Shown one piece after another: positions 1-11,524 of a stretch of DNA of 11,524 nucleotides. Made by a program: the position numbers and the translations under genes. The stretch spans positions 1-11,524 of the IMG/VR virus record IMGVR_UViG_2534681657_000015. One strand, given 5' to 3'. The stretch comes from a virus. Lineage: Duplodnaviria > Heunggongvirae > Uroviricota > Caudoviricetes. Each line of letters begins with the position of its first letter. Position 1 is the first letter of the stretch. The notes below the pieces were generated by a model that was not told the DNA's origin, did not search any database, and saw nothing but the letters and a program-made list of their open reading frames with translations.

Positions 1-1284
1 TTACTTCTTCGCCTCTGCAACCACTTTACTACCCACGCCGCGGTTATTGTATTCCCACATGCGGTTGTAGTTAGTGTCATTCAGATTGCGCTGTATTTCG
101 TCGTTATCATCTACGCTGCCGGTATTACCCGCAAACGGACGATTAGAGATCACCGCATCGGCCCACGGTTTAGCCGTGTTAAAACCTTCGTTGATGGCGC
201 TATCACGGATCACCACCTGACCGTTGGTATTGGCATCAACATCCAGCGAGCGGCCCAGTTGCGCCACACCATCACCGAAAGCATTGAAACGGCTGTTTAC
301 GGCGAGGAAACCGTAGTAAATGTTGGACAGCGTAGCCGGTGCAAACACATACGCTTCTTGCTGAGTACGTGAGTTCACCACGCGGAATTCGGTGTTATCG
401 AACACCACTGCGCCGCGACCAGAAACGATATCCACATCCCCTTCAATGTAGCTGTTGGTCACCAGCGTACGCGGCTGACGGTTGGTTTCCAGACGGTTCT
501 GCACACCGCTGTTGGTGACAAAGAAGGTGTTCTGACGACCGAGAATGTTAACGTTGTTAATCTGTACCTGGTCACCATCAGTACGCAGTGCCACCGCCGG
601 ATGGTTACCTGCATCTACGCTATCGCCCAGCGTGTTTTCGATGGTCAGATTTTGCAGTTGCAGGCCATTGTTTTGTGACCAGAAGACCGCAGAGCAGAGA
701 ACACCGATACTGTCGCTGCGTTTGCTCTGGCAGCTATCGTACATATACCACGCTGGTTTACCTGGCATATATTTGCCGCGCGGGTTGACGTCGTGACGCC
801 AGTCGGCAGGGCTCATGCCACCATCAAGGGAAAGCCCAATCTTCACATCAATCGGTTTTTCACCTGTACCGTACAGAGTAATTCCACCCGGAGCGGCAGG
901 GACATATACCGTTCCCTGATACTCACCAGGCATCACGGCAATATACTGGCGCTTGTTGGTACGCTTGATAATTGCCGCATCTACCGCCGCCTGAATCGTG
1001 GTATGCGTTACACCTTGAGTGCCCGCCGGGCCGACAACAAAGTCAGGTTGCGCAGGCAGGGTAATCGGGGAAGGATTCCACGCTGCAGCACCTGGTGTCA
1101 GGGATGCAAAATAGTGTTGAGCATCGAAATTCTGCGCTTCTTTTGCCGACAGAATCGGGCGAGAAGAGGTACCAGGCGCGGTTTGATCAGAAGGACGTTG
1201 ATCGGGCGGGGTTGAGCTACAGGCGGTCAGCGTCACGCCAAAAGCCAATGCCAGCGCCAGACGGGAAACTGAAAATGTGTTCAC
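1..1284 (-). CDS. ybhC: Host outer-membrane lipoprotein of the pectinesterase-like family (YbhC-type), complete ORF with signal peptide and lipobox
   Basis: 427-aa ORF; N-terminus MNTFSVSRLALALAFGVTLTAC is a lipoprotein signal peptide with an L-T-A-C lipobox; the body is Gly/Asn-rich and beta-helix-like, typical of pectinesterase-fold proteins. ybhC is the gene I recall flanking E. coli attB-lambda on the gal side, consistent with the adjacent att core. Confidence 0.85.
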   Translation of the reverse strand: MNTFSVSRLALALAFGVTLTACSSTPPDQRPSDQTAPGTSSRPILSAKEAQNFDAQHYFASLTPGAAAWNPSPITLPAQPDFVVGPAGTQGVTHTTIQAAVDAAIIKRTNKRQYIAVMPGEYQGTVYVPAAPGGITLYGTGEKPIDVKIGLSLDGGMSPADWRHDVNPRGKYMPGKPAWYMYDSCQSKRSDSIGVLCSAVFWSQNNGLQLQNLTIENTLGDSVDAGNHPAVALRTDGDQVQINNVNILGRQNTFFVTNSGVQNRLETNRQPRTLVTNSYIEGDVDIVSGRGAVVFDNTEFRVVNSRTQQEAYVFAPATLSNIYYGFLAVNSRFNAFGDGVAQLGRSLDVDANTNGQVVIRDSAINEGFNTAKPWADAVISNRPFAGNTGSVDDNDEIQRNLNDTNYNRMWEYNNRGVGSKVVAEAKK

Positions 1285-1320
1285 AGGTTGCTCCGGGCTA
1301 TGAAATAGAAAAATGAATCC

Positions 1321-1428
1321 GTTGAAGCCTGCTTTTTTATACTAAGTTGGCATTATAAAAAAGCATTGCTTATCAATTTGTTGCAACGAACAGGTCACTA
1401 TCAGTCAAAATAAAATCATTATTTGATT
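1321..1428. other. attL: Prophage attL (B-O-P'): 15-bp lambda core GCTTTTTTATACTAA at 1331-1345 followed by the lambda P' arm with arm-type Int sites (AGGTCACTAT, CAGTCAAAAT)
   Basis: Direct read: gaagcctGCTTTTTTATACTAAgttggcattataaaaaagcattgcttatcaatttgttgcaacgaacaggtcactatcagtcaaaataaaatcattatttg matches the lambda attP P' arm from memory; the left side of the core is bacterial (B arm) sequence; the int stop codon lies inside the P' arm as in lambda. Confidence 0.85.
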
Positions 1429-2489
1429 TCAATTTTGTCCCACTCCCTGCCTCTGTCATCACGATACTGTGATGCCATGGTGTCCGACTTATGCCCGAGA
1501 AGATGTTGAGCAAACTTATCGCTTATCTGCTTCTCATAGAGTCTTGCAGACAAACTGCGCAACTCGTGAAAGGTAGGCGGATCCCCTTCGAAGGAAAGAC
1601 CTGATGCTTTTCGTGCGCGCATAAAATACCTTGATACTGTGCCGGATGAAAGCGGTTCGCGACGAGTAGATGCAATTATGGTTTCTCCGCCAAGAATCTC
1701 TTTGCATTTATCAAGTGTTTCCTTCATTGATATTCCGAGAGCATCAACATGCAATGCTGTTGGGATGGCAATTTTTACGCCTGTTTTGCTTTGCTCGACA
1801 TAAAGATATCCATCTACGATATCAGACCACTTCATTTCGCATAAATCACCAACTCGTTGCCCGGTAACAACAGCCAGTTCCATTGCAAGTCTGAGCCAAC
1901 ATGGTGATGATTCTGCTGCTTGATAAATTTTCAGGTATTCGTCAGCCGTAAGTCTTGATCTCCTTACCTCTGATTTTGCTGCGCGAGTGGCAGCGACAGG
2001 GTTTGTTGTTATATGGCCTTCAGCTATTGCCTCTCGGAATGCATCGCTCAGTGTTGATCTGATTAACTTGGCTGACGCCGCCTTGCCCTCGTCTATGTAT
2101 CCATTGAGCATTGCCGCAATTTCTTTTGTGGTGATGTCTTCAAGTGGAGCATCAGGCAGACCCCTCCTTATTGCTTTAATTTTGCTCATGTAATTTATGA
2201 GTGTCTTCTGCTTGATTCCTCTGCTGGCCAGGATTTTTTCGTAGCGATCAAGCCATGAATGTAACGTAACGGAATTATCACTGTTGATTCTCGCTGTCAG
2301 AGGCTTGTGTTTGTGTCCTGAAAATAACTCAATGTTGGCCTGTATAGCTTCAGTGATTGCGATTCGCCTGTCTCGGCCTAATCCAAACTCTTTACCCGTC
2401 CTTGGGTCCCTGTAGCAGTAATATCCATTGTTTCTTATATAAAGGTTAGGGGGTAAATCCCGGCGCTCATGACTTCGCCTTCTTCCCAT
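1419..2489 (-). CDS. int: Tyrosine site-specific integrase, lambda Int type
   Basis: 356-aa ORF beginning MGRRRSHERRDLPPNLYIRNNGYYCYRDPRTGKEFGLGRDRRIAITEAIQAN, matching lambda Int in length and sequence from memory; C-terminal catalytic region with HELRS...LGH...Y; sits immediately beside attL. Confidence 0.97.
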   Translation of the reverse strand: MGRRRSHERRDLPPNLYIRNNGYYCYRDPRTGKEFGLGRDRRIAITEAIQANIELFSGHKHKPLTARINSDNSVTLHSWLDRYEKILASRGIKQKTLINYMSKIKAIRRGLPDAPLEDITTKEIAAMLNGYIDEGKAASAKLIRSTLSDAFREAIAEGHITTNPVAATRAAKSEVRRSRLTADEYLKIYQAAESSPCWLRLAMELAVVTGQRVGDLCEMKWSDIVDGYLYVEQSKTGVKIAIPTALHVDALGISMKETLDKCKEILGGETIIASTRREPLSSGTVSRYFMRARKASGLSFEGDPPTFHELRSLSARLYEKQISDKFAQHLLGHKSDTMASQYRDDRGREWDKIEIK

Positions 2490-2685
2490 TTCTGATCCTC
2501 TTCAAAAGGCTACCTGTTACTGGTCGATTTAAGTCAACCTTTACCGCTGATTCGTGGAACAGATATTCTCTTCCATCCTTAACCGGAGGAGGGAATATCC
2601 TGCATTCGCGCACCCATCGACGAACTGTTTCAAGGCTTCTTGGGCGTCGCTGGCGAGCGTTCCACTCCTGAAGTGTCAAGTACAT
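2467..2685 (-). CDS. xis: Excisionase, lambda Xis type
   Basis: 72-aa ORF MYLTLQEWNARQRRPRSLETVRRWVRECRIFPPPVKDGREYLFHESAVKVDL; overlaps the int start by 23 nt as in lambda. Confidence 0.95.
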   Translation of the reverse strand: MYLTLQEWNARQRRPRSLETVRRWVRECRIFPPPVKDGREYLFHESAVKVDLNRPVTGSLLKRIRNGKKAKS

Positions 2686-2710
2686 CGCAAAGTCTCCGCA
2701 ATTACACGCA

Positions 2711-2732
2711 AGAAAAAACCGCCATCAGGCGG
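2711..2732 (-). terminator. Candidate intrinsic terminator on the minus strand (stem CCGCC / loop TGAT / GGCGG, then a TTTTTT run), overlapping the stop codon of the upstream 55-aa ORF
   Basis: Plus strand 2711-2732 agaaaaaaccgccatcaggcgg; its reverse complement gives a 5-bp GC stem followed by a U-run in the leftward transcript. Confidence 0.4.
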
Positions 2733-2892
2733 CTTGGTGTTCTTTCAGTTCTTCAATTCGAATATTGGTTACGTCTGCATGTGCTATCTGCGCCCACAGC
2801 ATCCAGTGGTCATAGCAGTCGCTGATGTTCTCGGCTTCGATAACTCTGTTGAATGGTTCTCCATTCCATTCACCTGTGACTCGGAAGTGCAT
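2725..2892 (-). CDS. Small hypothetical phage protein (55 aa), MHFRVTGEWNGEPFNRVIEAENISDCYDHWMLWAQIAHADVTNIRIEELKEHQAA
   Basis: Hand translation of the minus strand; ATG at 2892-2890 preceded by a GGGGA Shine-Dalgarno about 6 nt upstream; position corresponds to a small unnamed ORF I recall just upstream of xis in lambda. Not in the supplied ORF track (below its length cutoff); the overlapping 66-aa track ORF 2784-2984 is in another frame and has no comparable RBS. Confidence 0.45.
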   Translation of the reverse strand: MHFRVTGEWNGEPFNRVIEAENISDCYDHWMLWAQIAHADVTNIRIEELKEHQAA

Positions 2893-3134
2893 TTATCATC
2901 CCCATAAAACAAACCCCGCCGTAGCGAGTTCAGATAAAAGAAATCCTCGTCAGTGCGAGGATGCTGTTCATTGCTGCTATACACTTTTTTGCTCTCAACG
3001 TAAGCGGTAGCCCATTCTGTTGGGTTGGTGCAGTTGCTTTTAGGAAATGCTATTTACCCCTTAAATGTCGGCTGAAAGAGCTAAAATCCATGCAAAAAAT
3101 TTACGCAATTTTGTGTATTATTGTGCAGTAAGTA

Positions 3135-3737
3135 ATGAGCTATTTTCTGCGCAAAAAATGGATGGTAAATTTGTCCGGGTCAGGAAAAATTTTATGGGCG
3201 CTAAACATGAAAAAAGATTCGTATCCTTATTTGATTTGCATGACAGTTTCAGGGCTGATCTTTATTTTCCTTTTCTTCTGGTGGCGGGCAGATATCTACA
3301 GGGTCACGTTTCTTAATCAGAGTATATCCCACTATTACATTCTGTTTAGCATGGGAATAGCTTTTCTGTTATCTCTGTTTTGGGTTAAGAAGGGGATAGT
3401 AAAACAAAGCGGCTGGAAGAGTCTGTCAGCATACCTTAAGGTTTATGCAGGGATGTGCATATTTGCTGGATTTTTTCTGATTATACCCCTTACGACACTA
3501 ACTTATTTTTTGCCTGGAGAGACATCGTCTTATGTTGCACCGTATCGGTATACTTCCGGTAGTTCAAAAAGTTGTTCTGGAGCTGAGGTGGATGACCCCG
3601 ATCTACATGAGAATATTCGCATTTGCTATCCGTATGGCAATTATGAGTACGATAATATTATCTATGTTGAAAAGAAAATTAATATATTAGGTGCGGTAGT
3701 GACATATGCACAGACCGCGCGTGATGATACTGAATGA
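3135..3737 (+). CDS. Hypothetical integral membrane protein (about 177-200 aa) with three predicted TM helices and a Cys-containing soluble C-terminal domain; accessory (moron-like) gene, function unknown
   Basis: Long plus-strand ORF in a clearly AT-rich segment; hydrophobic stretches YLICMTVSGLIFIFLFFWW, YYILFSMGIAFLLSLFWV and GMCIFAGFFLIIPLTTLTYFL; C-terminal ~75 aa hydrophilic with three Cys. Start is uncertain: candidates are 3135 (longest), 3162 and 3207 (MKKDSY..., typical of a membrane protein N-terminus); none has a strong SD. Opposite orientation to the surrounding early-left operon. Confidence 0.6.
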   Translation: MSYFLRKKWMVNLSGSGKILWALNMKKDSYPYLICMTVSGLIFIFLFFWWRADIYRVTFLNQSISHYYILFSMGIAFLLSLFWVKKGIVKQSGWKSLSAYLKVYAGMCIFAGFFLIIPLTTLTYFLPGETSSYVAPYRYTSGSSKSCSGAEVDDPDLHENIRICYPYGNYEYDNIIYVEKKINILGAVVTYAQTARDDTE

Positions 3738-3781
3738 TATAGTATATAGCGGGCAAGTTTTAGTTAATTTATCGAGGTAAT

Positions 3782-3805
3782 ATAATTTACCTCGACTCGT
3801 TTGTT
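3782..3805 (+). terminator. Perfect 9-bp inverted repeat TCGAGGTAA-tataat-TTACCTCGA just downstream of the membrane-protein gene; possible terminator or operator-like palindrome
   Basis: Direct read of 3782-3805; followed by ctcgtttgttc (only moderately T-rich); the loop is the hexamer TATAAT. Confidence 0.3.
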
Positions 3806-3947
3806 CTGGTATTAATATTTCGCTTTACGACCGATTTTTATCTGATGATATCATGCGGTTTTCATATACTGACTTACTGTCTTTTCTCCGTTAGCGATTT
3901 TCTCCTGCTCAGCGATGATTTTATCTTTGGCTTCTAGTTAATTTCGC

Positions 3948-4169
3948 TCACTTCGAACCTCTCTGTTTACTGATAAGCTCCAGATCTTGCTGGCAACTGG
4001 CACAAGTCCGACAACCCTGAACGGCCAGTCGTCTTCGTTCATCTATCGGATCGCCACACTCACAACAATGAGTGGCAGATATAGCCTGGTGGTTCAGGCG
4101 GCGCATTTTTATTGCTGTGTTGCGCTGTAATTCTTCAATTTCTGATGCTGAATCAATTATGTCTGCCAT
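3948..4169 (-). CDS. DksA/TraR-family C4 zinc-finger protein (73 aa), likely RNA-polymerase secondary-channel binder
   Basis: MADIIDSASEIEELQRNTAIKMRRLNHQAISATHCCECGDPIDERRRLAVQGCRTCASCQQDLELISKQ: a CxxC-(17)-CxxC zinc-finger preceded by an acidic, probably coiled-coil N-terminus, the architecture of TraR/DksA-type proteins; size and position fit the lambda Orf73 TraR-like protein as I recall it. Confidence 0.7.
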   Translation of the reverse strand: MADIIDSASEIEELQRNTAIKMRRLNHQAISATHCCECGDPIDERRRLAVQGCRTCASCQQDLELISKQRGSK

Positions 4170-4220
4170 CTTTCATTAATCCCTGAATTGTTGGTTAATA
4201 CGCTTGAGGGTGAATGCGAA

Positions 4221-4247
4221 TAATAAAAAAGGAGCCTGTAGCTCCCT
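4221..4247 (-). terminator. Candidate intrinsic terminator on the minus strand (GGAGC / TACAG / GCTCC followed by TTTTTTATT)
   Basis: Plus strand taataaaaaaggagcctgtagctccct; the reverse complement gives a stem-loop plus U-run between the 71-aa ORF and the TraR-like gene. Confidence 0.35.
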
Positions 4248-4267
4248 GATGATTTTGCTTTTCATGT

Positions 4268-4483
4268 TCACCGTTCCTTAAAGACGCCGTTCAACATGCC
4301 GATCGCCAGGCTTAAATGAGTCGGTGTGAATCCCATCAGCGTTACCGTTTCGCGGTGCTTCTTTAGTACGCTACGGCAAATGTCATCGACGTTTTTATCC
4401 GGAAACTGCTGTCTGGCTTTTTTGATTTCAGAATTAGCCTGACGGGCAATGCTGCGAAGGGCGTTTTCTTGCTGAGGTGTCAT
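4268..4483 (-). CDS. Hypothetical small phage protein (71 aa from MTPQQENALRSIARQANSEIKKARQQ...; the track extends it to 93 aa from an ATG at 4549)
   Basis: Minus-strand ORF; the 4483 start forms an ATGA overlap with the stop of an upstream 27-aa micro-ORF, suggesting translational coupling; the 4549 start has no SD and is immediately preceded by an in-frame stop. Confidence 0.45.
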   Translation of the reverse strand: MTPQQENALRSIARQANSEIKKARQQFPDKNVDDICRSVLKKHRETVTLMGFTPTHLSLAIGMLNGVFKER

Positions 4484-4563
4484 TGAACAAGCCCCATGTC
4501 GGCAAGCATAAGCACACAGAATATGAAGCCCGCTGCCAGAAAAATGCATTCAGTGGTTGTCAT
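4480..4563 (-). CDS. Candidate 27-aa hydrophobic micro-ORF (MTTTECIFLAAGFIFCVLMLADMGLVQ), translationally coupled on both sides
   Basis: Hand translation; its ATG overlaps the orf63-like stop (ATGA at 4563-4560) and its stop overlaps the ATG of the 71-aa ORF (ATGA at 4483-4480). Too short for the ORF track. Confidence 0.25.
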   Translation of the reverse strand: MTTTECIFLAAGFIFCVLMLADMGLVQ

Positions 4564-4751
4564 ACCTGGTCTCTCTCATCTGCTTCTGCTTTCGCCACCA
4601 TCATTTCCAGCTTTTGTGAAAGGGATGCGGCTAACGTATGAAATTCTTCGTCTGTTTCTACTGGTATTGGCACAAACCTGACTCCAATTTGAGCGAGGCT
4701 ATGTGCCATCTCGATACTCGTTCTTAACTCAACGGGAGATGCTTTGTGCAT
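4560..4751 (-). CDS. Small early-left protein, lambda orf63-like (63 aa)
   Basis: [63 protein letters not shown]; size and position (second ORF upstream of exo) match lambda orf63 from memory. Confidence 0.65.
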   Translation of the reverse strand: MHKASPVELRTSIEMAHSLAQIGVRFVPIPVETDEEFHTLAASLSQKLEMMVAKAEADERDQV

Positions 4752-4906
4752 ACAGCTCCCCGTTTATTATTTATCTCCTCAGCCAGCCGCTGTGCTTTCA
4801 GGGGATTTCTGATAACAGAAAGGCCGGGAAATACCCAGCCTCGCTTTGTAACGGAGTAGACGAAAGTGATCGCACCTACCCGGATATTATCGTGAGGATG
4901 CTTCAT
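4724..4906 (-). CDS. Small early-left protein, lambda orf60a-like (60 aa from [17 protein letters not shown]...)
   Basis: The ATG at 4906-4904 forms an ATGA overlap with the exo stop (4903-4905); 60 aa matches lambda orf60a; the track's longer 62-aa version starts at 4912. Confidence 0.65.
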
Positions 4907-5583
4907 CGCCATTGCTCCCCAAATACAAAACCAATTTCAGCCAGTGCCTCGTCCATTTTTTCGATGAACTCCGGCACCATCTCGTCAAAACTCGCCATGT
5001 ACTTTTCATCCCGCTCAACCACGACATAATGCAGGCCTTCACGCTTCATACGCGGGTCATAGTTGGCAAAGTACCAGGCATCTTTTCGCGTCACCCACAT
5101 GCTGTACTGCACCTGGGCCATGTAAGCCGACTTTATGGCCTCGAAACCACCGAGCCGGAACTTCATGAAATCCCGGGAGGTAAACGGGCATTTCAGCTCA
5201 AGGCCATTGCCGTCACTGCATAAACCATCGGGAGAGCAGGCGGTACGCATACTTTCGTCGCGATAGATGATCGGGGATTCAGTAACATTCACGCCGGAAG
5301 TGAATTCAAACAGAGTTCTGGCGTCGTTCTCGTACTGTTTTCCCCATGCCAGCGCCTTAGCATTAACTTCCGGAGCCACACCGGTGCAAACCTCAGCCAG
5401 CAGGGTGTGGAAGTAGGACATTTTCATGTCAGGCCACTTTTTTCCGGAGCGGGGTTTTGCTATCACATTGTGAACTTCTGAAGCGGTGATGACGCCGAGC
5501 CGTAATTTGTGCCACGCATCATCCCCCTGTTCGACAGCTCTCACGTCGATTCCGGTACGCTGCAGGATAATGTCCGGTGTCAT
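4903..5583 (-). CDS. exo: Lambda exonuclease (Red-alpha), 5'-3' dsDNA exonuclease
   Basis: 226-aa [68 protein letters not shown]..., matching lambda Exo from memory in length and sequence; ATGA overlap with the bet stop. Confidence 0.97.
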
Positions 5584-6365
5584 GCAGCCACCTTCTGCTC
5601 AGTGGCTTTCTGTTTCAGGAATCCAAGAGCTTTCACTGCTTCGGCCTGTGTCAGTTCTGACGATGCGCGAATGTCGCGGCGAAATATCTGGGAACAGAGC
5701 GGCAATAAGTCGTCATCCCATGTTTTATCCAGGGCAATCAGCAGAGTGTTAATCTCCTGCATGGTTTCATCGTTAACCGGAGTGATGTCGCGTTCCGGCT
5801 GACGTTCTGCAGTGTATGCGGTATTTTCGACAATGCGCTCGGCTTCATCCTTGTCATAGATACCCGCAAATCCGAAGGCGAGACGGGCACACTGAATCAT
5901 GGCTTTATGCCGTAACATCCGTTTGGGATGCGACTGCCACGGTCCGGTGATTTCTCTGCCTTCGCGGGTTTTGAATGGTTCGCGGCGGCATTCATCCATC
6001 CACTCGGTAACGCAGATCGGATGATTGCGGTCCTTGCGGTAAATCCGGCATGTGCAGGATTCATTGTCCTGCTCAAAGTCCATGCCATCAAACTGCTGGT
6101 TTTCATTGATGATACGGGACCAGCCATCAACGCCCACCACCGGAACGATGCCGTTCTGCTTGTCAGGGAAGGCGTAAATTTCTTTCGTCCACGGATTAAG
6201 GCCGTACTGGTTGGCGACGATCAGCAATGCGATGAACTGCGCATCGCTGGCATCACCTTTAAATGCCGTCTGGCGAAGAGTGGTGATCAGTTCCTGTGGG
6301 TCGACAGAATCCATGCCGACGCGTTCAGCCAGCTTCCCAGCCAGCGTTGCGAGTGCTGTACTCAT
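5580..6365 (-). CDS. bet: Red-beta single-strand annealing protein (recombinase)
   Basis: 261-aa [75 protein letters not shown]..., lambda Bet. Confidence 0.97.
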
Positions 6366-6370
6366 CCGTT

Positions 6371-6787
6371 TTATACCTCTGAATCAATATCAACCTGGTG
6401 GTGAGCAATGGTTTCAACCATGTACCGGATGTGTTCTGCCATGCGCTCCTGAAACTCAACATCGTCATCAAACGCACGGGTAATGGCTTTTTTGCTGGCC
6501 CCGTGGCGTTGTAAATGATCGATGCAGAGTGATTCAAACAGGTGCTGGGGCAGACCTTTTTCCATGTCGTCTGCCAGTTCTGCCTCTTTCTCTTCACGGG
6601 CGATCTGCTGGTAGTGACGCGTCCAGCTCTGAGCCTCAAGACGATCCTGAATGTAATAAGCGTTCATGGCTGAACTCCTGAAATAGCTGTGAAAATATCG
6701 CCCGCGAAATGCCGGGCTGATTAGGAAAACAGGAAAGGGGGTTAGTGAATGCTTTTGCTTGATCTCAGTTTCAGTATTAATATCCAT
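6371..6787 (-). CDS. gam: Gam, RecBCD nuclease inhibitor (138-aa long form; the short form would start at the internal [13 protein letters not shown])
   Basis: 138-aa ORF ending ...[22 protein letters not shown], lambda Gam from memory; located immediately upstream of bet. Confidence 0.95.
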
Positions 6788-6885
6788 TTTTTATAAGCGT
6801 CGACGGCCTCACGAAACATCTTTTCATCGCCAATAAAAGTGGCGATAGTGAATTTAGTCTGGATAGCCATAAGTGTTTGATCCAT
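6742..6885 (-). CDS. kil: Kil (host cell-division inhibitor), 47 aa
   Basis: Internal Met of the 89-aa track ORF gives [47 protein letters not shown] (47 aa); the upstream part of the track ORF overlaps cIII in another frame. Confidence 0.8.
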
Positions 6886-7018
6886 TTTTTGGGACTCCTG
6901 GCTGATTAAGTATGTCGATAAGGCGTTTCCATCCGTCACGTAATTTACGGGTGATTCGTTCAAGTAAAGATTCGGAAGGGCAGCCAGCAACAGGCCACCC
7001 TGCAATGGCATATTGCAT
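6854..7018 (-). CDS. cIII: CIII, FtsH (HflB) protease inhibitor, 54 aa
   Basis: Hand translation [54 protein letters not shown], matching lambda CIII from memory; below the ORF-track length cutoff. Confidence 0.85.
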   Translation of the reverse strand: MQYAIAGWPVAGCPSESLLERITRKLRDGWKRLIDILNQPGVPKNGSNTYGYPD

Positions 7019-7090
7019 GGTGTGCTCCTTATTTATACATAACGAAAAACGCCTCGAGTGAAGCGTTATTGGTATGCGGTAACGCCGCGC

Positions 7091-7459
7091 TCAGGCGGCT
7101 TTGATAGTCATATCATCTGAATCAAATATTCCTGATGTATCGATATCGGTAATTCTTATTCCTTCGCTACCATCCATTGGAGGCCATCCTTCCTGACCAT
7201 TTCCATCATTCCAGTCGAACTCACACACAACACCATATGCATTTAAGTCGCTTGAAATTGCTATAAGCAGAGCATGTTGCGCCAGCATGATTAATACAGC
7301 ATTTAATACAGAGCCGTGTTTATTGAGTCGGTATTCAGAGTCTGACCAGAAATTATTAATCTGGTGAAGTTTTTCCTCTGTCATTACGTCATGGTCGATT
7401 TCAATTTCTATTGATGCTTTCCAGTCGTAATCAATGATATATTTTTTGATGTTTGACAT
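7091..7459 (-). CDS. ea10: Ea10-like early protein (122 aa), acidic; reported ssDNA-binding-like function in lambda
   Basis: 122-aa ORF MSNIKKYIIDYDWKASIEIEIDHDVMTEEKLHQINNFWSDSEYRLNKHG...; size and position (next gene upstream of cIII) match lambda ea10. Confidence 0.75.
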   Translation of the reverse strand: MSNIKKYIIDYDWKASIEIEIDHDVMTEEKLHQINNFWSDSEYRLNKHGSVLNAVLIMLAQHALLIAISSDLNAYGVVCEFDWNDGNGQEGWPPMDGSEGIRITDIDTSGIFDSDDMTIKAA

Positions 7460-7479
7460 CTATTCATATCCTCACAGAT

Positions 7480-7506
7480 AAAAAATCGCCCTCACATTGG
7501 AGGGCA
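7480..7506 (-). terminator. Candidate intrinsic terminator on the minus strand (GCCCTC / CAATGT / GAGGGC then GATTTTTTAT), just upstream of ea10
   Basis: Plus strand 7480-7506 taaaaaatcgccctcacattggagggc; the reverse complement gives a 6-bp GC-rich stem and a U-run; position is compatible with a tL-type terminator that N antitermination would read through. Confidence 0.4.
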
Positions 7507-7719
7507 AAGAAGATTTCCAATAATCAGAACAAGTCGGCTCCTGTTTAGTTACGAGCGACATTGCTCAGTGTATTCACTCGTTGGAATGAATACACAGTGC
7601 AGTGTTTATTAGTATGCCTGTCTTTTAACCACATCAGGCTCGGTGGTTCTCGTGTACCCCTACAGCGAGAAATCGGATAAACTCTATTCACCCCTACAGA
7701 GAGCAAAAGAGAAACGCCG

Positions 7720-8301
7720 ATGAACAACTCATGGTGGCAGGAACTAATGCATTTTTTCCTGCAAGGAATGACACTTAAACAGTTGATTCATATGCTAATC
7801 ATCCTGATCATATTGATTATTGTTATGCCTGTAAGCGTAAAAGAATGGATAAACCTGCATAATCCAGAAATCCTTCCTCATTACTGGATGTATTACATCC
7901 TGTTGTTTTGCGTTAGCTATGTGCTTAACGGCGTTGTTAATTCCGCTTATCACGCTGTGACTGAAAGAATTGAGATATTCGCTGCTCAGAAGCGCAAATC
8001 TAAAGAAGAGAAATACGTGCAAGATTTGTTTGATTCGTTAACTCTTGGAGAAAGAGCGTATTTGGCATTCGCTGTAGCCGCTAATAACCAGCTAAAGACA
8101 GAAAAGGGAAGCCCTGAAGCAATCTCATTGCTCGAAAAAGGGCTTCTTATTCGGGTACCTTCTGCTACTGGATATCCTGAAATCGACCGTTTTGTTATCC
8201 CGGAACGCTATAGAAATGAGTGCTACATTAGGTTTGCTGGGAAGAAAGACAGTCTTATGGATGAACTTATCGCTCAGGATAAGCATGGCAAAAACAAGTA
8301 A
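7720..8301 (+). CDS. sieB: Superinfection exclusion protein B (SieB-type), inner-membrane protein
   Basis: 193-aa plus-strand ORF with N-terminal TM segments (LIHMLIILIILIIVMPV, YWMYYILLFCVSYVLNGVV), transcribed opposite to the early-left operon between ea10 and N, as sieB is in lambda/P22. Confidence 0.8.
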   Translation: MNNSWWQELMHFFLQGMTLKQLIHMLIILIILIIVMPVSVKEWINLHNPEILPHYWMYYILLFCVSYVLNGVVNSAYHAVTERIEIFAAQKRKSKEEKYVQDLFDSLTLGERAYLAFAVAANNQLKTEKGSPEAISLLEKGLLIRVPSATGYPEIDRFVIPERYRNECYIRFAGKKDSLMDELIAQDKHGKNK

Positions 8302-8317
8302 TTAGCAAATTAATTTA

Positions 8318-8590
8318 TCATCTCGCCGTCAGTTGTTTTGATTTCCGGTAGCCTGCCGCGTAAATGGCTACGTTTGGCAGGCAAATACTTCCACTGCATT
8401 CATCTGCCTTCTTGCAGCGAAGGCTTCCGAGTGATGCTGCTTTGTCTGCTCTGACGCAACCAGAGAGCTTTAGCGCAATTTTTCGCGCCAGTCGCTGTTC
8501 TTGCATTGCCTGCTCACGTTGAGCCTGTCTGCGTGCTCTGCGGCGATTTCTGGCGTTATTGTCAGCCAGATATGTAATGACTACTGCCAT
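8318..8590 (-). CDS. N: N-family transcription antiterminator (90 aa) with an N-terminal arginine-rich motif (NARNRRRARRQAQREQ) and a P22 gp24/phage-21-type C-terminus
   Basis: First gene downstream of the PL/nutL region on the minus strand; N-terminal arginine-rich motif; the C-terminal tail LPNVAIYAAGYRKSKQLTAR resembles the end of P22-type N proteins as I recall them; clearly not lambda N. Confidence 0.7.
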   Translation of the reverse strand: MAVVITYLADNNARNRRRARRQAQREQAMQEQRLARKIALKLSGCVRADKAASLGSLRCKKADECSGSICLPNVAIYAAGYRKSKQLTAR

Positions 8591-8699
8591 GTTGACCTCC
8601 GATGATTAACTTTGGCGGTGACGCGCCGGGTGCTTATCTTCCGGTTGCCGTCGTGCAGCTGCACTTCACGTCACCCCAAAGCCAACTACTCTTTGGTTC

Positions 8700-8740
8700 C
8701 CGCATTTCGGCGGGACAATCCCATCAATGTTAAAGAGCCT
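8700..8740 (-). promoter_or_regulatory. nutL: nutL: boxA (GCTCTTTAACA, 8729-8739 on the minus strand) and boxB hairpin (UCCCGCCGAAAUGCGGGA, 8700-8717)
   Basis: Minus-strand read aggCTCTTTAACAttgatgggattgTCCCGCCGAAATGCGGGAacc between PL and N; the identical boxA/boxB pair recurs downstream of cro on the plus strand. Confidence 0.55.
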
Positions 8741-8770
8741 GCCAATCTGTTCCGTTTGGCTACCAGCGTC

Positions 8771-8850
8771 CTGCCGATGACTTAAATTTAAGATTTCTTT
8801 AACTATTGGTCAAGAGTGTTTTTGAAGAAAACTTAAATTTTGTTGCGAAG
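8771..8850 (-). promoter_or_regulatory. OL/PL region: leftward promoter (-35 TTGACC at 8798-8803, -10 TAAATT at 8775-8780, 17-bp spacer) overlapping P22-type TTAAG...CTTAA operator half-sites
   Basis: Direct read of the reverse complement TTGACCaatagttaaagaaatctTAAATT; operator-like atttaagatttctttaa resembles the OR site atttaagtgttctttaat. Confidence 0.5.
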
Positions 8851-8870
8851 CTTAAGTTTTGCTTTGATTT

Positions 8871-8895
8871 TTAAAGGAAAGAAAAAAAGGGGCGA
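8871..8895 (-). terminator. Intrinsic terminator downstream of the repressor gene (AAGGGGC / ATTC / GCCCCTT followed by a TTTTTTTC run on the minus strand)
   Basis: Plus strand gaaaaaaaggggcgaatgcccctt at 8871-8894, immediately 3' of the c2 stop (8903). Confidence 0.55.
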
Positions 8896-8902
8896 ATGCC
8901 CC

Positions 8903-9553
8903 TTATGGAAGGTTTGCTATTTTTGCATCGACAACTACACCGATGATTTTGCAGTTCCCGTTGATCTCAATCATCGGATATTGTGGGTTAAGTGGTTTTA
9001 GAAACCTTCTGCCAGCATCAATAACTAACTTCTTGAAAGTTGCCTCGTTTTCTCCTTCGAGCTTTGCCACTACCAGCTTCCCATTACGAGGTTCTACTTC
9101 AGGATCGACTAGTATTATCATCCCTTCCGGGATGCTAAGCCCGGCTGGAGCCGTCATCGAATCACCCTTTACGTCCAGCCAAAACGAATCTTCTGAACAA
9201 TCTACGGTTGTATCGTACCAGTTATCTATTGCACGCTTATGATATGGCTCTACAGCTTCCATCCAACATCCTGCGCTTACCCAACTAATTAGAGGATACG
9301 AACCTCTTGGATCATGCCTGCTGTGATAGGCAATGTTTGAAAGACTATCTTCTCCTTTCAACAAGTAATCAGGGGAGCACTGTAAAGCCTTGGCTAAAGC
9401 CAATAGGTTTTCGCCATTGGGCTCAGTTTCAGAACGCTCCCATTGGGAAATAGCAACATTAGACACGCCAACCATCTTGCCGAGGGCAGCCTGCCTAATC
9501 TTAAGTTCTTTTCTGCGAGCGCGAATACGCTCACCCATCAGTTGTGTATTCAT
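8903..9553 (-). CDS. c2: Phage repressor, P22 C2 type (lambda CI family): N-terminal HTH DNA-binding domain plus C-terminal LexA-like autocleavage domain
   Basis: 216-aa ORF MNTQLMGERIRARRKELKIRQAALGKMVGVSNVAISQWERSETEPNGENLLALAKALQCSPDYLL..., near-identical to P22 C2 from memory; Ala-Gly cleavage site (VSAGCW) and a Ser/Lys catalytic pair (GDSM ... K) are present. Confidence 0.95.
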   Translation of the reverse strand: MNTQLMGERIRARRKELKIRQAALGKMVGVSNVAISQWERSETEPNGENLLALAKALQCSPDYLLKGEDSLSNIAYHSRHDPRGSYPLISWVSAGCWMEAVEPYHKRAIDNWYDTTVDCSEDSFWLDVKGDSMTAPAGLSIPEGMIILVDPEVEPRNGKLVVAKLEGENEATFKKLVIDAGRRFLKPLNPQYPMIEINGNCKIIGVVVDAKIANLP

Positions 9554-9554
9554 A

Positions 9555-9621
9555 GTTAAGACATCTTAAATAAACTTGACTTAAGATTCCTTTGATAGAT
9601 AATTTAAGTGTTCTTTAATTT
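9555..9621. promoter_or_regulatory. OR operator cluster with divergent promoters: three P22-type operators (agTTAAGAcaTCTTAAat, acTTAAGAttcCTTTgat, atTTAAGTgtTCTTTAAt); PR -35 TTGACT (9576-9581) and -10 GATAAT (9598-9603)
   Basis: Direct read of the 80-bp intergenic region between the divergent c2 and cro genes. Confidence 0.6.
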
Positions 9622-9633
9622 CGGGGCGAGTCT

Positions 9634-9819
9634 ATGTACAAGAAAGATGTTATCGACCACTTCGGAACCCAGCGTGCGGTAGCTAAAGCGTTAGGCATTA
9701 GCGATGCAGCAGTCTCTCAGTGGAAGGAAGTCATCCCAGAGAAAGACGCCTATCGACTGGAAGTCGTTACAGCTGGCGCCCTGAAGTATCAAGAAAGTGC
9801 TTATCGCAAAGCGGCATAA
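9634..9819 (+). CDS. cro: Cro repressor, P22 type (61 aa)
   Basis: MYKKDVIDHFGTQRAVAKALGISDAAVSQWKEVIPEKDAYRLEVVTAGALKYQESAYRKAA, P22 Cro-like, with HTH QRAVAKALGISDAAVSQW. Confidence 0.9.
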   Translation: MYKKDVIDHFGTQRAVAKALGISDAAVSQWKEVIPEKDAYRLEVVTAGALKYQESAYRKAA

Positions 9820-9825
9820 GCAAAT

Positions 9826-9869
9826 TGCTCTTTAACAGTCATGGTCCTTATTCCCGCCGAAATGCGGGA
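9826..9869 (+). promoter_or_regulatory. nutR: nutR: boxA (GCTCTTTAACA, 9827-9837) and boxB hairpin (UCCCGCCGAAAUGCGGGA, 9852-9869)
   Basis: Plus strand ttGCTCTTTAACAgtcatggtccttatTCCCGCCGAAATGCGGGAat just downstream of cro; same elements as nutL in the opposite orientation. Confidence 0.55.
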
Positions 9870-9927
9870 ATACAACGCGCATCAGTTGGTGCGTATAACT
9901 TCTTATTTGTTAAGGAAATACTTACAT

Positions 9928-10206
9928 ATGCAACTTACAAGTACTCGCAAGAAAGCGAATGCAATCACAAGCAACATCCTGAATCGAATTGCTGTACGTG
10001 GTCAGCGAAAGGTTGCTGATGCATTAGGGATTAATGAATCGCAAATTTCGCGATGGAAAGACAGCTTTATCCCAAAGATGGCCATGCTTCTGGCTGTGCT
10101 GGAGTGGGGTGTTGAAGACGAGGAATTAGCAAAGCTAGCAAAGAAAGTAGCCATGGTGCTGACAAAAGAAAAGCCTCAAGACTGCTGCAACAGTTTTGAG
10201 GCCTGA
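9928..10206 (+). CDS. c1: CII-family transcriptional activator, P22 C1 type (92 aa)
   Basis: Internal start of the 121-aa track ORF: MQLTSTRKKANAITSNILNRIAVRGQRKVADALGINESQISRWKDSFIPKMAMLLAVLEWG..., preceded by an AAGGA SD at 9912-9916; the 9841 start would place nutR inside the coding region. Confidence 0.85.
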   Translation: MQLTSTRKKANAITSNILNRIAVRGQRKVADALGINESQISRWKDSFIPKMAMLLAVLEWGVEDEELAKLAKKVAMVLTKEKPQDCCNSFEA

Positions 10207-10240
10207 TGTAGAAAGACTGGATCAATCCACAGGAGTCATT

Positions 10241-10268
10241 ATGACAAATACAGCAAAAATACTCAACT
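10241..10268 (+). pseudogene. O: 5' fragment of the replication initiator gene O (MTNTAKILNL...), interrupted after about 9 codons by the IS insertion
   Basis: AGGAG SD at 10231-10235 then atgacaaatacagcaaaaatactcaacttg = MTNTAKILNL, the N-terminus of lambda O (MTNTAKILNFGR...) from memory; the reading frame is broken at 10269 where the IS terminal repeat (TGAACCGCCCCGGG...) begins. Confidence 0.7.
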
Positions 10269-10322
10269 TGAACCGCCCCGGGAATCCTGGAGACTAAACT
10301 TCCTGAGAAAGAGGTAAACAGG

Positions 10323-10649
10323 ATGACTAAAAATACTCGTTTTTCCCCCGAAGTCCGTCAACGGGCAGTCCGTATGGTTCTGGAAAGTCAGGGCGAATAT
10401 GACTCACAATGGGCGACAATTTGTTCCATTGCTCCAAAGACTGGCTGTACGCCGGAGACTCTGCGTGTCTGGGTTCGCCAGCATGAGCGGGATACCGGGG
10501 GCGGTGATGGAGGGCTCACCACCGCTGAACGTCAGCGTCTGAAAGAGCTGGAGCGTGAAAATCGTGAACTGCGCCGCAGTAACGATATTCTTCGCCAGGC
10601 TTCCGCTTATTTTGCGAAGGCGGAGTTCGACCGCCTCTGGAAAAAATGA
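10323..10649 (+). CDS. IS3-family transposase OrfA (HTH / leucine-zipper DNA-binding subunit), 108 aa
   Basis: [60 protein letters not shown]...[36 protein letters not shown]. Confidence 0.9.
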
Positions 10650-11524
10650 TGCCACTGCTGGATAAGCTGCGTGAGCAGTACGGGGTCGGACCGCTATGCA
10701 GCGAACTGCATATTGCCCCGTCAACGTATTACCACTGTCAGCAACAGCGACATCATCCGGATAAACGCAGTGCCCGTGCGCAGCGCGATAACTGGCTGAA
10801 GAAAGAGATACAGCGCGTATACGATGAAAATCACAAGGTATACGGTGTGCGTAAAGTCTGGCGTCAGTTGTTACGGGAAGGTATCAGAGTGGCCAGATGC
10901 ACTGTGGCACGTCTCATGGCGGTTATGGGACTTGCCGGTGTTCTCCGGGGTAAAAAGGTCCGTACGACCATCAGCCGGAAAGCCGTTGCCGCAGGCGACC
11001 GCGTAAACCGTCAGTTCGTGGCAGAACGACCTGACCAGCTGTGGGTGGCTGATTTTACTTACGTCAGCACATGGCGGGGCTTCGTCTATGTGGCGTTCAT
11101 CATTGATGTGTTTGCCGGATACATCGTGGGGTGGCGGGTCTCATCGTCCATGGAAACGACATTCGTGCTGGATGCACTGGAGCAGGCGTTATGGGCCCGT
11201 CGACCGTCCGGCACGGTCCATCACAGTGATAAAGGTTCTCAGTATGTATCGCTGGCCTACACACAGCGGCTTAAGGAAGCCGGATTACTGGCATCAACAG
11301 GAAGTACAGGCGACTCGTATGACAACGCGATGGCGGAGAGCATCAATGGTCTTTACAAAGCGGAGGTAATACACCGTAAGAGCTGGAAAAACCGTGCAGA
11401 AGTAGAACTGGCCACACTCACGTGGGTGGACTGGTATAACAATCGACGATTGCTGGAAAGGCTGGGCCATACTCCTCCGGCAGAAGCAGAAAAAGCTTAT
11501 TATGCTTCCATCGGAAACGATGAT
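10646..11524 (+). CDS. IS3-family transposase OrfB (DDE/RNase-H-fold catalytic domain), -1 frame relative to OrfA, 3' end off the window
   Basis: Hand translation from the ATG at 10646 gives [29 protein letters not shown]...[38 protein letters not shown]...[11 protein letters not shown]...[20 protein letters not shown]..., an open frame to the window end containing integrase-core motifs (D...D...E). Absent from the ORF track, presumably because no stop codon lies inside the window. Confidence 0.85.

Follow-up and report, generated by a model that had tools for sequence, protein, structure and literature searches.

A lambdoid prophage that joins lambda-like integration and recombination genes to a P22-like repressor region raises the question of which immunity its lysogen would have, and of where the modules were joined. 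The initial annotation had described such a mosaic in an 11,524-nt stretch of DNA (hereafter the window), with one module junction between ea10 and sieB/N and another beyond c1. We aligned its modules to lambda and P22, as that annotation had proposed, and found lambda-type recombination genes together with a P22-type repressor and operators. Very probably, the window covers the left-hand half of a naturally occurring lambdoid prophage that sits in the E. coli lambda att site by ybhC, and this prophage is a recombinational mosaic of known modules. In this reading, a lambda-type integration module (att, int, xis) and a lambda-type early-left set (exo, bet, gam, kil, cIII, ea10) would be followed by a cassette of the P22 immC / phage 21 group, in the order PL/OL, terminator, repressor, OR/PRM/PR, cro, nutR and c1. 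Next to the cassette would lie a sieB of the P22 type and an N of the HK620 type whose nut sites match it, and lambda-type DNA would return at the oop/O boundary, where an IS3-family element then appears to break O after 29 nt.

Integration and early-left modules

The window contains ybhC, the lambda att common core GCTTTTTTATACTAA (1331..1345, read directly from the sequence) and then the lambdoid prophage. The core lies directly after ybhC and represents the ybhC side of the prophage, with the lambda P' arm next to it. Lambda homology starts exactly at 1331, aligned by BLAST to the core annotated in lambda, and the DNA from 1331 to 2962 is 98.6% identical to lambda (BLAST). Two minus-strand genes follow: int (1419..2489), encoding a lambda-type tyrosine integrase identical to lambda Int at 354 of 356 residues (99.4%) with Pfam matches to Arm-DNA-bind_1 and Phage_integrase, and xis (2467..2685), encoding a lambda-type excisionase (71/72 identical to lambda Xis, 98.6%). 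Just upstream of xis, a search for TTGC-N6-TTGC found the lambda P_I activator site TTGCGTGTAATTGC (2698-2711). An att core in the ybhC-ybhB interval, an arm-binding Int and an Xis together constitute a lambda site-specific integration module.

Next to this module, a non-lambda substitution (2963..3935; GC content of about 39%) stands in place of lambda ea8.5/ea22, and BLAST gave no match between this segment and lambda, P22 or N7. It includes an ORF on the plus strand (3135-3737) for a 200-aa hydrophobic protein, which had no match in Pfam or PADLOC; its match in PHROGs, phrog_1416 (unknown function), covers only the C-terminal 88 aa.

The lambda-type early-left block (3936..7610, minus strand) is 97.6% identical to lambda DNA (BLAST). 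Reading along the window, the block holds a dksA/traR-like orf (3948-4169), then an orf61-like ORF, orf63 and orf60a in that order, exo (4903-5583; protein 98.7% identical to lambda), bet (5580-6365; 99.6%), gam (6371-6787; 97.8%), kil (6742-6885; 100%), cIII (6854-7018; 100%) and ea10 (7091-7459; 100%), all on the minus strand. With the exception of the frameshifted orf61-like ORF, proteins of the block are 95-100% identical to those of lambda, and the Rfam element Lambda_thermo, the cIII thermoregulator RNA element, was detected at 6973-7031 (88.5 bits). The exo-bet-gam-kil-cIII series, in lambda order and at high identity, identifies a lambda Red/early-left module. The initial assignment of int, xis, exo, bet, gam, kil, cIII and attL to lambda is therefore borne out by protein identities of 97.8-100% and by the att core.

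The repressor, its operators and the N-nut system

The repressor gene (8903..9553, minus strand) encodes a protein of the P22 C2 / phage 21 cI type, with a helix-turn-helix domain and an S24 autocleavage domain (Pfam HTH_3 and Peptidase_S24; best PDB matches 1ADR and 2R1J). It is identical to P22 C2 at 201 of 216 residues (93.1%) and shares only 31.6% identity with lambda cI. The repressor, cro and the cII-like gene had been called P22-type, and at 93%, 95% and 89% identity to P22 C2, Cro and C1 this stands as a statement of type, but the closest classical repressor is full-length phage 21 cI (213/216 identical, 98.6%) rather than C2. The repressor is also 96.8% identical to N7 C2 and 98.6% identical to the mEp235 repressor. 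Because 21 cI is the closest repressor and N7 and mEp235 are closest overall, 'P22/21-type' is the more accurate label. Relative to the P22 C2 DNA-binding domain that has been solved and crystallised, residues 1-67 carry two substitutions, K16E and S54A, and E16 and A54 are also found in 21 cI; residues 17-53, including the whole helix-turn-helix, are identical to both P22 C2 and 21 cI. P22 C2 contacts DNA through Arg14, Arg20, Val33 and Gln37 (PMC5175364), all of which are kept. In the C-terminal domain and linker, approximately 12 residues differ from those of P22 C2.

Divergently transcribed from the repressor is a P22-type cro (9634..9819, plus strand), whose product is identical to P22 Cro at 58 of 61 residues (95%), to 21 Cro at 59 and to N7 Cro at all 61, and matches Pfam P22_Cro (PF14549, 96 bits) and PDB 1RZS. 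The cII-like activator gene, a P22 C1-type c1 (9928..10206, plus strand), encodes a protein with a Pfam Phage_CII match that is 89% identical to P22 C1 (82/92), 45% identical to lambda cII and 23% identical to imm21 cII. We rejected a c1 start at 9841, which is merely the longest-ORF start; the start homologous to that of P22 c1 is 9928, which RefSeq also annotates in relatives, and the boxB hairpin of nutR falls inside the extra 5' stretch of the 9841 ORF. The PRE activator site TTGCGAGTACTTGT (9937-9950, given as minus-strand sequence) aligns with the annotated P22 C1 binding site, and TTGC-N6-TTGY sites are present at both PRE and lambda P_I.

The published P22 operator consensus is ATTTAAG-N4-CTTAAAT, 18 bp (PMC5175364), and the five window 18-mers that match it best are OR3, OL1, OR1, OL2 and OR2. 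A scan of the immunity region for lambda-type operators found none, in agreement with the initial description of TTAAG/CTTAA sites instead of lambda operators; two lambda-operator matches with three mismatches, both outside the immunity region, were treated as chance. OL1 (8786-8803), OL2 (8821-8838) and a weaker OL3 (approximately 8851-8868) span 8785..8868 on the minus strand together with the PL promoter (-35 at 8813-8808, -10 at 8790-8785); all were placed by scanning and by an alignment that follows the annotated P22 OL region column for column. OR3 (9554-9571), OR2 (9579-9596) and OR1 (9602-9619), spanning 9554..9619, and PR (-35 TTGACT at 9576-9581, -10 GATAAT at 9598-9603) were placed in the same way, and the OR alignment with P22, 21 and N7 is nearly invariant and free of gaps. 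The three predicted operators at OR and the three at OL overlap PR/PRM and PL, respectively. OR1 and OL2 are identical to their P22 counterparts and OR3 differs at one central base, whereas OR2, OL1 and OL3 differ at 3-4 positions each (three in OR2); the TTAAG/CTTAA half-sites are retained in the five strong operators. Across the window, 14 TTAAG-N4-CTTAA-like sites were observed against 5.2 expected, a count that none of 200 shuffles reached, and six of the 14 lie at OL and OR; there is a perfect site at 9556-9569.

An intrinsic terminator (8887..8904, minus strand), detected by scanning as a hairpin of seven pairs with a T-run, overlaps the stop codon of the repressor gene; its folding energy is -12.2 kcal/mol (z = -3.3), and it is conserved in P22, 21 and N7. 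Since the gap between the repressor and N is only 312 bp, there is no rexAB, and the claim of a terminator directly after a repressor without rexAB was correct. The region has no lambda cI, no lambda 17-bp operators and no rexAB, and does not qualify as imm-lambda.

On the left, the cassette is bordered by N and sieB. The sieB gene (7720..8301, plus strand) is a superinfection exclusion gene of the P22 type, with a product 84% identical to P22 SieB (162/193) and 20% identical to lambda SieB that matches Pfam SieB and phrog_1301. The N antiterminator gene (8318..8590, minus strand) is HK620-type: its product has a Pfam N_peptide match and shares 95.6-97.8% of its residues with N of HK620, HK630, mEp213 and JEP4, and identity is low to P22 gp24 (36%), 21 N (42%) and lambda N (13%). 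Its 3' end is P22-like and its middle 21-like, and when it was compared with lambda, 21, P22 and N7 alone, it could be taken for a new mosaic of three types, whose arginine-rich motif and boxB would be new as well; we rejected this idea because the full-length protein is so close to the HK620, HK630, mEp213 and JEP4 N proteins. NutL (8698..8738, minus strand) consists of a boxB hairpin (8698-8715) and boxA GCTCTTTAACA (8728-8738), aligned with the nutL sites of P22, 21 and N7, and nutR (9826..9869, plus strand), read from the sequence, consists of boxA TGCTCTTTAACA (9826-9837) and the boxB hairpin UCCCGCCGAAAUGCGGGA (9852-9869), with a folding energy of -13.7 kcal/mol (z = -2.2). The 18-nt boxB sequence is identical at nutL and nutR and also occurs in N7 and related prophages. 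N and both nut boxB sites form a matched HK620/N7-type set.

Module junctions and the interrupted O gene

Both proposed junctions exist. The left one, between ea10 and sieB/N, is a short stretch upstream of sieB (7615..7699) that is common to lambda (94%) and P22 (97-100%); lambda homology stops at approximately 7699, and neither BLAST nor the segment map found any in 7700-10215. On the right, beyond c1, it is back at approximately 10216, after the c1 stop (10206) and before O. However, they are not the only two. A deletion at 7610/7615 accounts for the absence of ral and orf28 (nothing in the window corresponds to lambda locus positions 7833-8172), and a segment map against lambda, lambda imm21, P22, N7 and mEp235 revealed a switch between related sequences inside N (8380-8399) and further switches within c2 and within c1. 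The immunity region is a patchwork whose closest E. coli phages are N7 (92% DNA identity over 8399-10269), mEp235 and 21.

An oop-like antisense unit (10165..10266, minus strand) spans the right junction, with a promoter found by scanning (-35 at 10266-10261, -10 at 10243-10238) and a terminator hairpin that overlaps the 3' end of c1 (-26.5 kcal/mol, z = -4.4); P22 has an annotated oop promoter and terminator at the aligned positions. Of the lambda-type replication gene O, the first 29 nt are present (10241..10269, plus strand) and are identical to the start of O in an IS-free relative (L005), in which O and P are 98.1% identical to lambda. At 10269/10270, O is interrupted by an IS3-family element (IS1203/IS629-like, a name taken from RefSeq annotations of matching copies; 10270..11524, plus strand) that continues past the window end and contains an OrfA with a Pfam HTH_Tnp_1 match and an Rfam ALIL frameshift pseudoknot (10604-10720). 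The exact c1-O-IS junction was found in no complete E. coli genome, nor in an exact 40-mer scan of species-representative genomes. The mosaic is older than the IS insertion. Because O is interrupted, this prophage can probably replicate only if the IS excises or if O is provided in trans; a replication defect in this copy is compatible with the natural mosaic that we favour.

The disrupted O gene invites two other readings. One, which we regard as speculative and rather unlikely, is that this copy is replication-dead but otherwise intact and is retained by the host for immunity and exclusion, as an island in which the IS in O locks the cassette in place. If this were true, the P22/21-type repressor, the P22-type SieB and the 200-aa membrane protein encoded at 3135-3737 would still be expressed: the repressor would protect against phages of an immunity group that is very common in E. 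coli, SieB would exclude other phages and the membrane protein might represent a new determinant of exclusion or defence. The other is that the prophage is a decaying remnant in which the regulatory genes no longer work together, the mosaic being an accident of decay. The IS3-family element in O, the deletion of ral and the further IS insertions and truncations seen in related prophages of other genomes are what such decay might leave behind, but we consider it very unlikely: the ORFs from int to c1 are all intact and 95-100% identical to functional homologues, the sole frameshift lying in the orf61-like gene; N still matches both of its boxB sites; promoters, operators and terminators are conserved; and IS-free copies with intact lambda O-P exist.

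Predicted immunity and relatives of the mosaic

How the recombinational mosaic would work as a prophage can be modelled on the well-studied switches of P22 and 21, from which we infer each step. Repressor dimers bound to three 18-bp ATTTAAG-N4-CTTAAAT-like operators at each of OR and OL would turn off PR and PL, and the repressor gene would be transcribed from PRM as far as the terminator that directly follows its stop codon. RecA-stimulated self-cleavage at an Ala-Gly site by the Ser/Lys S24 domain would induce the prophage, after which Cro would occupy the same operators, N would antiterminate at nutL and nutR and C1 would activate PRE. Because C1 and lambda cII share the TTGC-N6-TTGC motif, C1 would also be expected to activate lambda P_I. 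That the repressor binds these sites, which immunity it confers, that the prophage is inducible and that it is defective in replication are all predictions from sequence. On this basis, the lysogen should be immune to phages with P22 immC or 21 immunity and sensitive to phages with lambda immunity. The full immunity of P22 consists of immC together with immI (mnt, arc and ant), which is located in the P22 late region, a part of the genome to which the window does not extend. The P22 and 21 repressors probably share specificity, a cross-recognition to be expected from their near-identical operators and repressors. In the parts of the literature available to a search for a stated shared P22/21 specificity, only a citation of Poteete et al. 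was found.

Operator affinities could nevertheless differ from those of P22, because OR2, OL1 and OL3 vary at 3-4 positions and because of K16E and S54A. Taken further, these operator differences and the C-terminal and linker substitutions in the repressor could mean that the cassette, despite its P22/21 appearance, has acquired a new specificity by drift and is heteroimmune to both phages. We find this most improbable, as the recognition helix region matches P22 C2 and 21 cI throughout, OR1, OL2 and, but for one central base, OR3 are those of P22, the half-sites are kept in all five strong operators and Cro shares 95-97% of its residues with its P22 and 21 counterparts.

The cassette shares with P22 immC its gene order, operator number and spacing, the terminator after c2, the PRE site and the oop unit. 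However, DNA identity to P22 is only 82% over 8722-10248, N and boxB are different, c1 is followed here by lambda O rather than by the P22 replication genes orf48/18/12, and the backbone is lambda-type (Int, Red), whereas that of P22 has Erf and Abc. Phage 21, in the form of lambda imm21 and DE3, shows the same combination of lambda int/xis/red with a C2-like repressor and a P22-like Cro at att-lambda. In DNA, the window matches phage 21 at 92-100% identity in OR and the 5' half of the repressor gene, but at only 72-86% in OL and the 3' half of that gene. The two phages have unrelated cII genes and differ in the arginine-rich motif of N and in the nut sites, and the window has a P22-type sieB and no ral. 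The nearest sequenced phage immunity regions are those of N7 and IME10 (Lederbergvirus) and mEp235 (Hendrixvirinae). N7 has the same N amino-terminus and boxB as the window, but its backbone differs entirely, being that of a P22-like podovirus with Erf; so does that of mEp235, an HK022-like siphovirus with an HK022 int and a Rad52-type recombinase. The same repressor is found with several different integrase, recombination and replication modules, the closely matching one of mEp235 included, and therefore the cassette moves as a module.

The closest matches are prophages at the same site. Over positions 1-10269, the ybhC prophages of the enterotoxigenic E. coli (ETEC) strains 120899, 602354 and TW10722 are 99.97-100% identical to the window and that of ETEC H10407 is 98.7% identical; these prophages have no IS3-family element in O, and an uninterrupted lambda-type O is followed by P and ren of the same type. 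More generally, RefSeq-annotated ybhC prophages in sequenced E. coli have the same genes, order and att site, and the arrangement is shared by 64 genomes of wild E. coli of human, animal and bird origin. The idea that the sequence is, or descends from, a laboratory construct, whether a hybrid lysogen (lambda imm21 or lambda immP22) or the DE3 prophage of BL21(DE3), has practically no chance of being correct: DE3 and lambda imm21 are the top phage-database matches by coverage (59%) and have in common with the window the att site, the int/red genes of lambda and a repressor resembling C2, but the alignments refute near-identity to lambda PaPa outside and to 21 inside the immunity region, because the lambda-type blocks are 1.4-2.4% diverged from lambda, sieB is P22-type where lambda imm21 has none annotated, N is HK620-type and c1 P22-type; moreover, the immunity region is only 86% identical to lambda imm21 in a match that ends at 9849, ral is absent, int is intact where that of DE3 carries the lacI/T7 RNA polymerase insert, and the wild genomes carry the arrangement.

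Mosaics of this type are already known, and module swapping is textbook for lambda-like phages. Lambda backbones with 21- or P22-type immunity have been known since classical hybrid-phage work, and examples of module exchange number in the dozens among sequenced phages and in the thousands among prophage contigs. The main worth of the analysis lies in a correct annotation and in the prediction of lysogen immunity. The fine map also illustrates recombination at short conserved linkers, namely upstream of sieB, within N and the repressor gene, and where oop meets O.

Lambda-type arm and module junctions

The open reading frame list, together with BLAST against phage and E. coli collections, identified E. 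coli ybhC at 1-1284 (-) and, beyond it, a lambdoid prophage. At 1331-1345 lies the 15-bp lambda att core, GCTTTTTTATACTAA, with host DNA on one side and the lambda P' arm on the other; this is the attL of a prophage inserted at the classical lambda attachment site. For the segment map, the window was compared with lambda, lambda imm21 (a hybrid with phage 21 immunity), P22, E. coli N7 and mEp235, using local BLAST and a 50-bp identity profile. Two blocks matched lambda: 1331-2962 (98.6%; att, int, xis and orf55) and 3936-7610 (97.6%; from a dksA-like open reading frame through exo, bet, gam, kil, cIII and ea10). At the protein level, Int, Xis, Exo, Bet, Gam, Kil, cIII and Ea10 were 97.8-100% identical to their lambda counterparts. 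Independently of the alignments, the Rfam Lambda_thermo family (the cIII thermoregulator RNA element) matched at 6973-7031 with 88.5 bits, confirming a lambda-type cIII leader. The lambda-type integration and recombination genes and attL proposed in the initial annotation are thus confirmed.

Between these blocks, 2963-3935 had no kin among the five reference phages; this substitution is low in GC (about 39%) and stands in place of lambda ea8.5/ea22. On the opposite strand, ORF 3135-3737 (+) encodes a 200-amino-acid protein with hydrophobic N-terminal segments. Pfam and PADLOC searches with this protein returned no match, and its sole PHROGs match was phrog_1416, a family of unknown function, over the C-terminal 88 amino acids. 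The ORF, which occurs too in phage mEp332 and in the ETEC prophages, resembles a moron. At 4268-4549, the orf61 homologue encodes 93 amino acids (61 in the lambda reference), and one indel accounts for its changed C terminus; because the 93-residue form matches phrog_303 end to end, the lambda reference version may be truncated.

At 7610/7615, 340 bp with ral and orf28 are deleted relative to lambda, and the flanks are otherwise lambda-like. A short stretch upstream of sieB (7615-7699) is common to lambda (94%) and P22 (97-100%), and P22 similarity extends over 7615-8380 (87% overall), covering sieB and the final codons of the N homologue. Further right, N7 matched 8399-10269 (92%; N up to the first bases of O), imm21 8399-9849 (86%; N to cro), P22 8722-10248 (82%; from OL through c1) and lambda 10216 onward (96%; oop promoter and start of O). 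In this alignment the lambda match ends at about 7699 and returns at about 10216. One junction thus falls between ea10 and sieB and the other just past c1, where they had been predicted.

A P22/21-type immunity region

The repressor (8903-9553, -; 216 amino acids) contains HTH_3 and Peptidase_S24 domains and is 98.6% identical to the mEp235 repressor, 96.8% to N7 C2, 93.1% to P22 C2 and 31.6% to lambda cI. Across residues 1-67, K16E and S54A are its only differences from the P22 C2 DNA-binding domain of known structure (1ADR, 2R1J), and Arg14, Arg20, Val33 and Gln37, for which PMC5175364 describes DNA contacts, are all kept. Cro (9634-9819) is identical to P22 Cro at 58 of 61 positions and matches Pfam P22_Cro and PDB 1RZS. 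The cII-like protein is of the P22 C1 type (82/92 identical), with 45% identity to lambda cII and only 23% to imm21 cII. Its homologous start is 9928, as in the RefSeq annotation of relatives; the alternative at 9841 is only the start of the long ORF, whose extra 5' part contains the nutR boxB hairpin. In the lambda imm21 record OM418625.1 (8757-9407), cI is annotated from an internal Met as 190 amino acids; read from an in-frame upstream ATG it has 216, is collinear with P22 C2 and matches the window repressor at 213/216 positions, so the annotation is probably a start-site error.

Each 18-mer of the window was scored for its fit to the P22 operator consensus ATTTAAGATATCTTAAAT published in PMC5175364. 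The five best were OR3 (start 9554, 16/18), OL1 (8786, 15/18), OR1 (9602, 14/18), OL2 (8821, 14/18) and OR2 (9579, 13/18). A looser TTAAG-N4-CTTAA scan gave 14 matches against 5.2 expected, a count reached by 0 of 200 shuffles, and a scan for lambda operators found none in the immunity region. In a gap-free alignment with P22, 21 and N7, the OR region is nearly invariant, differing from P22 by 0 bases in OR1, 1 in OR3 and 3 in OR2; the OL alignment is just as good. A promoter scan detected PL and PR (TTGACT-16-GATAAT). A strong hairpin with a T-run, kept in P22, 21 and N7, overlaps the repressor stop codon, and the space after the repressor is too small to hold rexAB.

The initial annotation was therefore correct both in its observations, including TTAAG/CTTAA operators, a terminator directly after the repressor and no rexAB, and in its mosaic interpretation. 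Six refinements are added. By repressor, the closest classical phage is coliphage 21, and P22/21-type is the better label; the immunity region is itself a fine patchwork, nearest to N7 and mEp235; and the other four are the HK620-type N, the loss of ral with the replacement of ea8.5/ea22, the 9928 start of c1 and the IS element in O. A laboratory lambda imm21 or DE3 (BL21(DE3) prophage) construct was ruled out as the identity of the window. From sequence, we infer that immunity specificity is of the P22/21 type and that the prophage may be inducible.

Activator sites and N antitermination

PRE keeps the P22 C1 site (9937-9950), and the lambda P_I site TTGCGTGTAATTGC is intact (2698-2711). Because TTGC-N6-TTGC is common to both, the P22-type C1 could plausibly still activate the lambda-type int promoter. 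Chance alone would give about 1.6 such motifs per window; a second perfect copy, TTGCTTGTGATTGC (-), lies inside c1 at 9961-9974, 24 bp downstream of the PRE site.

The arginine-rich motif of N (8318-8590) is not of the lambda, 21 or P22 type. Its identity to N of HK620, HK630, mEp213 and JEP4 is 95.6-97.8%, which identifies the protein by homology as a known HK620-type antiterminator. An identical 18-nt boxB, UCCCGCCGAAAUGCGGGA, is present at nutL (8698-8715) and nutR (9852-9869), as in N7 and related prophages, and N and boxB form a matched, functional-looking set. This N/nut pair is a fourth type, apart from those of lambda, 21 and P22, and is already represented in sequenced phages.

Distribution and right end

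At least 80% of the window is present in one place in 64 complete E. coli genomes, and several ETEC isolates are 99.97-100% identical over 1-10269. The assembly collection contains 8,843 blocks with an identical repressor protein. In the sampled contigs it is found alongside integrases of at least four types, recombination genes of the Red or Rad52/Abc2 type, and replication genes of the lambda O/P or O/DnaB type. The repressor and cro also occur in mEp235, whose genome is HK022-like, and in N7, a P22-like podovirus. The immunity cassette is a freely exchanged module, and the prophage fits well-known lambdoid mosaicism throughout, with no departure.

In near-identical IS-free relatives, the prophage runs on into intact O and P genes, which share 98.1% identity with lambda. 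Here an IS3-family element cuts off the lambda-type O after 29 nt, at 10269/10270; the O fragment and the element together occupy 10241-11524. This prophage would be predicted to be defective in replication. The exact O-IS junction was absent from all complete E. coli genomes and GTDB species-representative genomes searched. The element is IS1203/IS629-like, judging from how RefSeq names matching copies, and contains an ALIL frameshift pseudoknot (10604-10720). An oop-like promoter and terminator lie at 10165-10266.
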